40,276 nt of DNA from a virus (UHGV-0069047); one strand, 5' to 3'; positions 2,944 to 31,435 are shown, numbered from the stretch's first letter. The notes: generated by a model not told the origin, from the letters alone. Numbers and translations are program-made.

Positions 2944-3241
2944 GTTTAGACCTCGATACTTTGAAAATTTGAACGACGTTACCGCGCGTTTTAATAACCG
3001 CAGCGAGCATGACAGCGTTGATAATGACCTCAGATAAATCCACAGCCATTGGCGTGCGGAACCAGATTGCATAGGCAACACGAACCGGAATACTGGCCGC
3101 AGCAACAATCAGGAAATAAGCAAGCCATCCTCCCCACCTTCGGTGTTGAGAGCCGTTACGCCGGAATGTGACAACGCGAATTGCTATGCCAGTGCAAATA
3201 ACTGCATTGGTGATAAGCAAAACAAGCTCATTAGTTACCAT
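2933..3241 (-). CDS. holin-like membrane protein
   Basis: About 100 aa with 2-3 hydrophobic helices, directly upstream of endolysin. Confidence 0.45.
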
Positions 3242-30103: not shown

Positions 30104-30625
30104 TCATTCTCCTTTGATGCGAATGCCTGTTGCAATGCTGTTTATGATGCTGTCAGTGCATGGGGTAGAAAGCTGGGCATCTCCAGCAATTTTCATGACC
30201 TCAACATCCGCATATCGAATACCGAGGTGTATCAGACCGGCTATACCTGACTTAAGTCGAACATTTTCCATAAACAGATCTTTTTCCCGCTGTTTAGCGG
30301 CTTCCAACTCCATCGACAATTTTTCCAACTGCTCTTTATGCTTCTTGTATTCCTGATACGCGTGCCAAGACTGACCTTTGCGCACACTATCAGTGATATC
30401 AGCAACCTGCTCCGGTGTTAGCGTGGTCAGTGGCTGTGCTGGAAAAATCATCACTTTCCCGGCATCCCAATCAAAACCCGCCTGAATTGACTGAACCTCA
30501 ACTGATGGTGTTGAACCGATGCGACCAGGCGAATGAACAACGATCGTTACATCCATATCGCGACGATGGCTGTGGTTGTTGGACAAAATACGATTCACCA
30601 ACTCAGAAAATTTGGAAAATTTCAT
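30104..30625 (-). CDS. Ead/Ea22-like protein
   Basis: Start at MKFSKF overlapping upstream stop; coiled-coil segment; C-terminal GIRIKGE tail shared with the 30947..31435 product. Confidence 0.45.
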
Positions 30626-30945
30626 GCTGATCCCTCTTTCTCTCCCCGGATAATTCTGTTGCACACATCCACACACTCGTCGCAGATGAAAACGGCGTCC
30701 CCAGCAATTAACTTTTTGACGGCGTACTGGGATTTGTTGCAGAAGCTGCAACAAAGTGTTCGCCTGACTGATAAGGATGGAGCGCCAGATGTCAGCCGCT
30801 CCATATCGTTCTTGCGACGCAATATCACACGGCTGAACTCAACCAGTTTCTCCGGGGATATCTCCTCCTCCGTAGCAAGCGCCTCTAATCGTTCGAGTAT
30901 GTGGAAGGCTTTTTTCTGGGTAATTGCAGAATGCGATGTGGTCAT
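30622..30945 (-). CDS. ClpX-type zinc-finger domain protein
   Basis: C-terminal [34 protein letters not shown] closely matches the ClpX N-terminal zinc-binding domain pattern; start MTTSHS with SD. Confidence 0.55.
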
Positions 30946-30946
30946 C

Positions 30947-31435
30947 TCACTCTCCTTTGATGCGAATGCCAGCGGCGCGGGAATCATTCCATCGCTTTAC
31001 TTCTTCACGAATTACGTCAATGCATTCTTTCGAATCCATTAGGTAATCTTCATCAAAAAGACGTTCCTGTTCGTTTTCTATCGCAACAATGATTGCTTCA
31101 ACTAACTTTTGTGCCTGAGAATCACTTTCTAACTCTGCTATGCGCTTACTTCCATCCGAGATAACGCCCTCGTAATACTCACGCTGCTCGTTGAGTTTTG
31201 ATTTTGCCAACTCCAGTTGTTTTGTTAGTTCCGCAATACGGCAAACATCGTTGATACGCGTTTCCTCTAATGCGTTGATCTCATCCAACAATGCCAGCGC
31301 GATATCTGGCGAAAAGTGCTTCATAAAATCGTTAAGCGCATTAATTCGCTGATCGAAAGGCATTACAGGTGCTTCACCAGCAATTTTTGTTTTTTCAGCG
31401 ATTTCACGAAGCTTTTGATAATCAATCTTGCTCAC
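30947..31435 (-). CDS. Ead/Ea22-like coiled-coil protein
   Basis: 162 aa helical protein ending in GIRIKGE. Confidence 0.45.

Follow-up and report, generated by a model that had tools for sequence, protein, structure and literature searches.

The zinc-binding domain (ZBD) at the N-terminus of ClpX is a dimeric docking platform for adaptors and for some substrates of ClpXP. Small modulators of proteases are also familiar, among them IraD, IraM and IraP, lambda RexB (which acts on ClpXP), lambda CIII (on FtsH), and T4 PinA and T7 Gp4.5 (both on Lon). Here we describe a gene of the virus UHGV-0069047 that encodes a protein of 107 amino acids (aa), in which a predicted helical hairpin is followed by a ClpX-type ZBD. 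The gene lies in a stretch of 40,276 nucleotides, the whole of which is called the window below.

The ClpX ZBD itself is homologous to the phage domain (68-71% identity) and shares with it the CxxC-x18-CxxC zinc site, the pocket formed by F16/I46 and, as far as the model goes, the treble-clef fold. In the phage protein, however, the ZBD is C-terminal rather than N-terminal, has no AAA+ ring and is preceded by an unrelated helical hairpin, and in one of the two sub-families described below (A) Pro31 is replaced by Asp or Glu. In recombinant form, purified ClpX ZBD supplied in trans at 5-20 µM inhibits RssB-dependent degradation of sigma-S (Micevski et al., 2020; PMC7226468; see also the work of Wojtyra, Thibault and Houry that is cited there). 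A free ZBD dimer that blocks N-domain-dependent delivery in trans is the mechanism we propose for the phage protein, but the recombinant domain is a laboratory fragment, whereas the phage protein is naturally encoded, has a further conserved module and is known here from its sequence.

Other described systems are more distant. The Ira anti-adaptors and the phage protease inhibitors are also small, re-tune the substrates of a host AAA+ protease and in several cases are encoded by phages or prophage-like islands; they have no sequence or fold kinship with the present protein, however, and none is known to work by copying the protease's own docking domain. CsfB (Gin), an anti-sigma factor of B. 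subtilis, contains, according to PMC5890618, the only other known dimeric treble-clef zinc domain that resembles the ClpX ZBD and is likewise a small stand-alone protein, in its case a regulator, but it is only ~20% identical to ClpX, is probably not homologous to it and binds sigma factors, whereas the ClpX origin of the phage domain is unambiguous. Rki, a J-domain protein from the T4-like phage RB43, is a stand-alone copy of an interaction domain of a host chaperone system which redirects proteostasis by stabilising sigma-32 (PMC3486835); unlike the protein described here, it acts on DnaK, belongs to a lytic phage and has a function that was shown experimentally. Finally, PHROG 12435 ('protease') and the 65-aa 'Clp protease' of Pseudomonas phage PP9W2 are stand-alone phage ClpX-type ZBDs, but they have no hairpin, show 36-38% identity and are likewise uncharacterised. 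In concept, the family may be regarded as kin to phage modulators of host proteases and to interaction domains captured from hosts, of which the J-domain protein of RB43 is one. The domain, its database label and short ZBD-only phage proteins are already known. What appears to be new is the fixed arrangement of hairpin and ZBD, the occurrence of this arrangement in four classes of temperate element, and the notion of a ZBD decoy that occurs naturally.

A ClpX-type zinc-binding domain without an AAA+ module

An earlier note, made from the sequence alone, had called an open reading frame (ORF) at 30622-30945 and had placed a ClpX-type zinc domain in the C-terminal half of its product. The ORF exists at exactly these coordinates and is on the minus strand, which the note had left unstated. 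Its product matches PHROG 6797 (function unknown) over its full length (E=2.9e-58, positions 1-106 of 107). The homologues split into two sub-families, A and B; members of sub-family B match PHROG 6797 too (E=7.5e-55 and 2.5e-39).

Residues 63-105 are a genuine ClpX-type ZBD and the match is far beyond chance. Pfam PF06689 (zf-C4_ClpX) is matched by aa 65-100 with E=1.3e-15 and 57.4 bits against a cut-off of 27, over profile positions 2-38 of 39, and the best phmmer matches in the PDB are the E. coli ClpX ZBD entries 2DS5/1OVX (E=1e-14). The AlphaFold2 (AF2) model, built with 28 family members, has a mean predicted local distance difference test score (pLDDT) of 77.8, with 84-90 in the ZBD, and Foldseek places the predicted domain on 2DS5_A at 0.5 Å root-mean-square deviation, a template-modelling (TM) score of 0.85 and 71% identity. 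The peptide on which the zinc domain had first been recognised corresponds to aa 66-99, and structure prediction with alignment to the ClpX ZBD, one of the checks that the note had named, agrees with it: the Cys pattern is predicted to fold in the ClpX manner. From the alignment, the putative zinc ligands are C66, C69, C88 and C91, with a spacing identical to that of ClpX, and F68 and I98 correspond to ClpX F16 and I46. All four ligands are unchanged across the 28 sub-family A sequences; in one of the 11 sub-family B sequences, the column before the last ligand, itself no ligand position, holds a non-Cys residue.

That no AAA+ module is present, as the note had also stated, is borne out by the NCBIfam ClpX equivalog models TIGR00382 and NF003745. 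These are matched at model positions 4-48 only and score 39.7 and 41.9 bits, about one-tenth of their cut-offs (370.75 and 359). The protein terminates six residues past the ZBD helix, and profile searches found no AAA+ similarity in the next gene or in the other neighbours.

To place the phage domain relative to ClpX, 14 bona fide ClpX N-termini were compared column by column with 11 sub-family B and 28 sub-family A sequences, the reference being the 25 positions within residues 12-47 at which ClpX varies little or not at all. Both sub-families retain 23-24 of these 25 positions, including C14, C17, C36 and C39, F16, I46, I47, C43 and the KLIAG strand. In sub-family B, N in place of D37 is the sole consistent change; conservative exchanges among I, V and L are seen at residues 12 and 27, every sequence shares with E. 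coli ClpX a Tyr at residue 34, and the enterobacterial details AGPSVYIC and VDLCN are present. In sub-family A, Pro31 is always replaced by Asp or Glu (Asn in one sequence) and the acidic residues 23 and 45 are relaxed. F68 is invariant in the phage family, and all except 3 of the 39 family sequences carry Ile or Val at position 98. In ClpX, F16 and I46 line a hydrophobic side pocket which binds trigger factor and overlaps the sites for lambda O, SspB and RssB (PMC7804408).

The ZBD of sub-family A is 68-71% identical to that of E. coli ClpX and 78-83% identical to ClpX fragments from other phyla. Judged by identity, then, the likeness to E. coli ClpX is not exceptional, and sub-family A is nearer to the consensus of bacterial ClpX in general. 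Neither sub-family resembles host clpX at the DNA level (blastn 'distant', 5,426 E. coli genomes). Because of this, and because of the higher identity to ClpX of other phyla, there is no sign of recent capture, and an origin by recent capture from the host clpX was rejected at the DNA level.

The hairpin, selection and distribution of the family

The ZBD is preceded by a hairpin whose helices are predicted to span residues 10-26 and 31-52 (pLDDT 73-85 for aa 11-50). The tip carries an invariant T25-E26-E27-x-I29 and the second helix a conserved L42-R43-R44-K45-x-D47; the hairpin residues that are invariant in the family alignment, where this half is conserved to the same degree as the ZBD, are R19, L20, E21, L23, T25, E26, E27, I29, L34, R44, K45, D47 and L51. 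A profile of the hairpin alone, searched against 1.84 billion representative proteins, matched only ZBD-fused proteins or frameshifted versions of them. The earlier note had seen in the protein a free mimic of the ClpX N-domain. The part of this claim that concerns a stand-alone phage ClpX-type ZBD stands, but a simple mimic is an incomplete account, as the protein also has the family-specific hairpin, which does not occur without the ZBD and is the more constrained of the two. An XB-like motif (LRVVK / LKxh) was also looked for in the hairpin; the conserved LRRK misfits the published motif and lies within a predicted helix, and no claim is made for it.

Selection was measured as the ratio of non-synonymous to synonymous substitution rates (dN/dS), by the Nei-Gojobori method, on 21 distinct gene sequences. 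The ratio is 0.52 for the whole gene, 0.29 for the hairpin, 0.55 for the ZBD, 1.8 for the linker and 1.5 for the C-terminal tail. The hairpin and the ZBD are thus under purifying selection, and the linker and the tail are not.

Sub-family A is found in phiV10-like phages, lambdoid prophages, and D6/P1-like and ~106-113 kb phage-plasmids, and in ~110 of 5,426 complete E. coli genomes. Sub-family B, with the N-terminus MQHIDREKAQRLIERMEALAKEE…, occupies the variable region that follows gpA in P2-like prophages, those of UTI89 and ST131 among them, and is found in ~112 of the 5,426. Each sub-family is therefore present in ~2% of complete E. coli genomes and the family in ~4%, including UTI89, ST131 and O145 strains. 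A scan of contigs with one genome per species contained no copy, which marks the gene as cargo that varies between strains. The family is carried by temperate elements of four unrelated kinds, and its P2-like (gpA), D6/P1-like and lambdoid carriers have unrelated replication modules.

Many GenBank and RefSeq entries for the family, including gp034 of phage D6 (NC_050154.1 78777-79097), bear the label 'carboxylate--amine ligase'. There is no ligase-family match in Pfam or NCBIfam searches, and the label appears to be a propagated mis-annotation.

Outside the family, there are bacterial metagenomic proteins in which a ClpX-type ZBD is joined to a second, C-terminal CxxC…CxxC zinc module (P0034, P0039, P0043, P0109, P0120), and others in which its fusion partners are helical domains (P0040, P0066, L122) or, in P0098, a transmembrane segment. 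Such fusions suggest that the ZBD has been reused in several uncharacterised non-ClpX architectures.

Possible functions of the hairpin-ZBD protein

The gene is an accessory gene of temperate enterobacterial phages. We consider it quite possible, while stopping short of calling it probable, that its product is a soluble dimer which competes with or modulates N-domain-dependent delivery to ClpXP, the hairpin providing a second specific contact. The ZBD would fold and dimerise like the ClpX N-domain and would expose the same hydrophobic side pocket. The soluble dimer might then capture tails or surfaces whose usual docking site is the ClpX N-domain, such as those of SspB, RssB, UmuD, trigger factor and N-domain-dependent substrates; UmuD/UmuD' is a classic client tethered to this domain. 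N-domain-dependent delivery would be diverted or blocked, and substrates recognised by the pore (plain ssrA tags) would be unaffected. The hairpin could make a second specific contact with a host or phage partner, or strengthen oligomerisation, so that the protein would act as an anti-adaptor-like modulator and not as a bare decoy. Pathways from which a phage might benefit include those of sigma-S, UmuD/UmuD', antitoxins and repressor fragments.

This role is suggested by the known part of the ClpX ZBD as a docking platform, inhibition by ZBD in trans, binding of the XB tail, the conservation described above and the presence of the family in four unrelated temperate elements. Competition is biochemically plausible because RssB-dependent degradation of sigma-S is inhibited when purified ZBD is supplied in trans. 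The XB tail of SspB binds the isolated ZBD with a dissociation constant of ~35-80 nM (PMC12373786). ClpX also acts at decision points of temperate phages, for example by removing the N-terminal fragment of CI (PMC10584840). As the four elements are unrelated and the gene has no constant neighbour, the target would be a host target common to all of them. The placement among accessory genes of the ead/ea22 type fits a host-modulating role. We infer dimerisation, ligand binding, an effect on ClpXP and a biological pay-off. In its fullest form, the proposal is that a virus uses a natural in-trans copy of the ClpX docking domain with a dedicated hairpin as an anti-adaptor or decoy, which sequesters N-domain adaptors and clients, such as RssB/sigma-S, SspB, UmuD/UmuD' or phage proteins, and so reprograms the choice of ClpXP substrates during infection or lysogeny; we put this forward tentatively, with a little less assurance than the general role.

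The earlier note had offered an O-like initiator as a protein that might be stabilised in this way. The initiator of this phage has HTH_36 and DnaT domains and lacks a lambda-O-like N-terminus, and the family occurs independently of the type of replication module. An O-like target is therefore unlikely, and stabilisation of lambda O was rejected.

Several points weigh against a role as a ClpX N-domain decoy or modulator. Nearly all the residues of the 40-aa domain are required for the fold and for dimer formation, and so a high identity to ClpX is no proof that ligand binding has been retained. The loss in sub-family A of the ClpX-invariant Pro31 and of the acidic residues 23 and 45 could, judging from the alignment, alter ligand specificity. 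The inhibition observed in vitro required micromolar ZBD (PMC7226468). The hairpin is more constrained than the ZBD, so the key activity may reside there and be unrelated to ClpX. Additionally, no study of a stand-alone phage ClpX-type ZBD protein was found in the literature.

The greater constraint on the hairpin (dN/dS of 0.29 vs 0.55), together with its invariant T-E-E tip and L-R-R-K patch, also favours a second explanation, in which the ZBD is a mere zinc-stabilised dimeriser in a regulator that has nothing to do with ClpXP and the charged hairpin is the active part, binding for example RNA polymerase, a repressor or another protein. CsfB is a precedent, being a ClpX-like treble-clef dimer with a non-ClpX function (PMC5890618), and ZBDs occur in other bacterial architectures. 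An acid-tipped helical hairpin with a C4 zinc layout loosely recalls the secondary-channel factors DksA/TraR, and TraR/DksA genes are found in the same accessory regions. A DksA/TraR-like identity was itself rejected, as neither the zf-dskA_traR profile nor the fold supports it. On balance we judge an unrelated regulator unlikely, yet well worth keeping in mind.

It is rather improbable that the protein acts as a 'poison subunit', its ZBD pairing with the ZBD of a ClpX subunit so that the hairpin sits atop the ClpX ring and blocks the N-domain platform or serves as a new adaptor by which a client bound to the hairpin reaches ClpXP. Conservation extends to the hydrophobic residues that build the core of the ClpX ZBD dimer (I35, V40, C43, I46, I47, L27 and I28), the ZBD dimerises through exactly these helix and hairpin elements (PMC5890618), sub-family B resembles enterobacterial ClpX down to the details AGPSVYIC and VDLCN, and a strongly conserved second module is what an adaptor needs. 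However, sub-family A alters the turn of the ZBD hairpin (P31 to D/E). Moreover, the ClpX ZBD dimer is described as constitutive, and in the hexamer the partner ZBD is at a very high local concentration, so that invasion by a phage ZBD would be inefficient.

We give little weight to the possibility that the protein is a prophage-encoded exclusion or defence factor which protects the lysogen, perhaps by stabilising or destabilising a component under ClpXP control. In P2-like prophages, sub-family B sits in the stretch bounded by gpA and the portal gene, a variable region which we take to be the site of P2 tin/old and of many defence systems, and at one P2-like locus the gene adjoins that of a Ren-like exclusion protein. 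A ClpXP-dependent toxin-antitoxin-chaperone defence is also known (bioRxiv 10.1101/2024.02.24.581848). However, in the window and in the lambdoid and D6 contexts the gene belongs to a lytic early string and not to a moron cassette expressed in lysogeny, and there is no conserved partner gene. PADLOC gave no match for the ZBD protein, for the flanking genes or for its neighbours in P2 contexts, and membership of a known anti-phage defence system was rejected for this reason.

That the gene is a functionless, decaying fragment of a captured clpX is very hard to credit: two IMG/VR loci do fuse the ORF to the downstream gene with loss of the fourth Cys and several database entries are frameshifted, but both domains are under purifying selection, the architecture is kept across two sub-families that have diverged at synonymous sites to saturation or close to it (proportion of synonymous differences, pS, 0.58-0.88), there is neither a downstream AAA+ remnant nor DNA similarity to the host clpX, and the gene is preceded by a good Shine-Dalgarno sequence and closely coupled to those on either side.

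Genome setting, neighbouring genes and significance

The window is the genome of a phiV10 (epsilon15-like) podovirus, the early region of which is ~96% identical to those of phiv142-3, PAS61 and phiV10. A copy of the ZBD gene with 100% identity is annotated in E. coli NCCP15648. The gene is one of a closely packed leftward series extending from the replication to the terminase genes, in the order cro-like gene, HTH_36/DnaT-type initiator, lambda-P-like gene, DUF1064 gene, two Ead/Ea22-like genes, ZBD gene, 173-aa gene, 80-aa gene, DUF551 gene and terminase. Matches in a promoter and terminator scan were no commoner than chance, so it is from the gene packing that membership of an operon is deduced. 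The features of the gene and its surroundings are given in Table 1.

Table 1. Positions of the ZBD gene, its parts and adjoining features in the window
Feature	Position	Strand	Basis
Coding sequence of the 107-aa hairpin-ZBD protein	30622..30945	minus	ORF list and sequence; PHROG 6797; RefSeq name 'ClpX C4-type zinc finger protein'
Predicted family-specific helical hairpin, aa 9-53	30787..30921	minus	AF2 model; invariant columns; profile search; dN/dS
Variable linker, about aa 54-62	30760..30786	minus	pLDDT 59; dN/dS; length and sequence differ between sub-families
ClpX-type C4 zinc-binding domain, aa 63-105	30631..30759	minus	Pfam; PDB match; Foldseek; column comparison with ClpX
Shine-Dalgarno sequence AAAGGAGAG of the ZBD gene	30950..30958	minus	Read from the sequence; within the last codons (..GIRIKGE) of the upstream Ead/Ea22 gene
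ATGA overlap of the ZBD-gene stop (TGA 30624-30622) with the ATG of the next gene	30622..30625	minus	Sequence
Downstream gene, 173 aa	30104..30625	minus	Sequence; no Pfam family

The start codon of the ZBD gene is the ATG at 30945-30943, and one base separates it from the stop codon (TGA, 30949-30947) of the Ead/Ea22-like gene upstream. There is an alternative in-frame ATG at 30987, which would add 14 residues to give a protein of 121 aa. This longer form is disfavoured and the 107-aa start preferred because conservation in the family begins at MTTSHSA, the upstream extensions found elsewhere are unrelated and differ by context, and RefSeq annotates 107 aa. At the other end of the gene, the ATGA overlap suggests translational coupling with the 173-aa gene.

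No gene is a constant neighbour across all the contexts examined. The upstream neighbours are usually Ead/Ea22-like genes ending in ..GIRIKGE (most related loci). In the window, the genes on both sides of the ZBD gene end in this peptide (30947-30970 and 30104-30127, minus strand), and its codons hold the Shine-Dalgarno sequence of the next gene. The same junction is found in most related loci, in P2-like contexts as ..NIGIKGE, and has the look of a linker for recombination by which the gene cassettes of ead/ea22 regions are shuffled.

The 173-aa gene lies directly downstream in 30 of the 38 sub-family A copies (the window included) and in neither D6 nor P2-like contexts, where other genes take its place. 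Its family has more than 2,400 database members, ~80 times as many as the ZBD family and mostly without a ZBD gene. An obligate two-gene module was therefore rejected and the association read as linkage. Across these proteins the N-terminal ~117 aa are almost invariant and are followed by mosaic C-terminal halves, with an Ea22 coiled coil and DUF551 among the parts seen there. The AF2 model of the 173-aa protein (pLDDT 57.8) is too poor for fold assignment.

A number of further observations were made on the neighbourhood of the gene. In two IMG/VR contigs (L060, L062 = L018, L022; ~3001-3142) a deletion fuses the ZBD ORF in frame, after ..FICDEC, to the downstream gene; these fused copies have no fourth zinc ligand and are decayed. 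In Escherichia phage PhiR41_1 (PV340561.1, ~108 kb), the leftward string includes a nearly identical ZBD gene, and its last gene, ~3.5 kb downstream of that one, encodes a UmuD homologue (L123 1095-1484), which is a single observation. The ZBD gene of P2-like prophages is usually preceded by a ParM / ParR-like partition pair, which is inserted past the replication gene gpA (L042 5366-6641 in UTI89, and most sub-family B loci), an unusual cargo for an integrated prophage of the P2 type. Elsewhere in the window, a DndB-like protein is encoded at 38479-39582 on the plus strand (Pfam PF14072, E=2e-46; PADLOC DndB, E=1e-37), adjoining RecT and PD-(D/E)XK recombination genes; a homologue of this DNA-phosphorothioation-associated regulator is unexpected in a phage.

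The phage hairpin-ZBD protein is a solid, testable lead rather than a surprise. If it proves to be unrelated to ClpXP, the ZBD fold would be a portable dimerisation module, and the widespread 'carboxylate--amine ligase' mis-annotation would be corrected as well. If it acts on ClpXP as proposed, it would be the first protease inhibitor built from the protease's own substrate-recognition domain, a new viral route by which host proteolysis is edited, and a genetically encoded tool for the selective shut-off of N-domain-dependent ClpXP pathways. ClpXP controls sigma-S, SOS mutagenesis proteins, antitoxins, and replication and transposition proteins, and in S. aureus at least it controls the completion of prophage induction. 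With the family present in ~4% of complete E. coli genomes and in P1/D6-like phage-plasmids, the protein could affect stress tolerance or mutagenesis in clinical strains.
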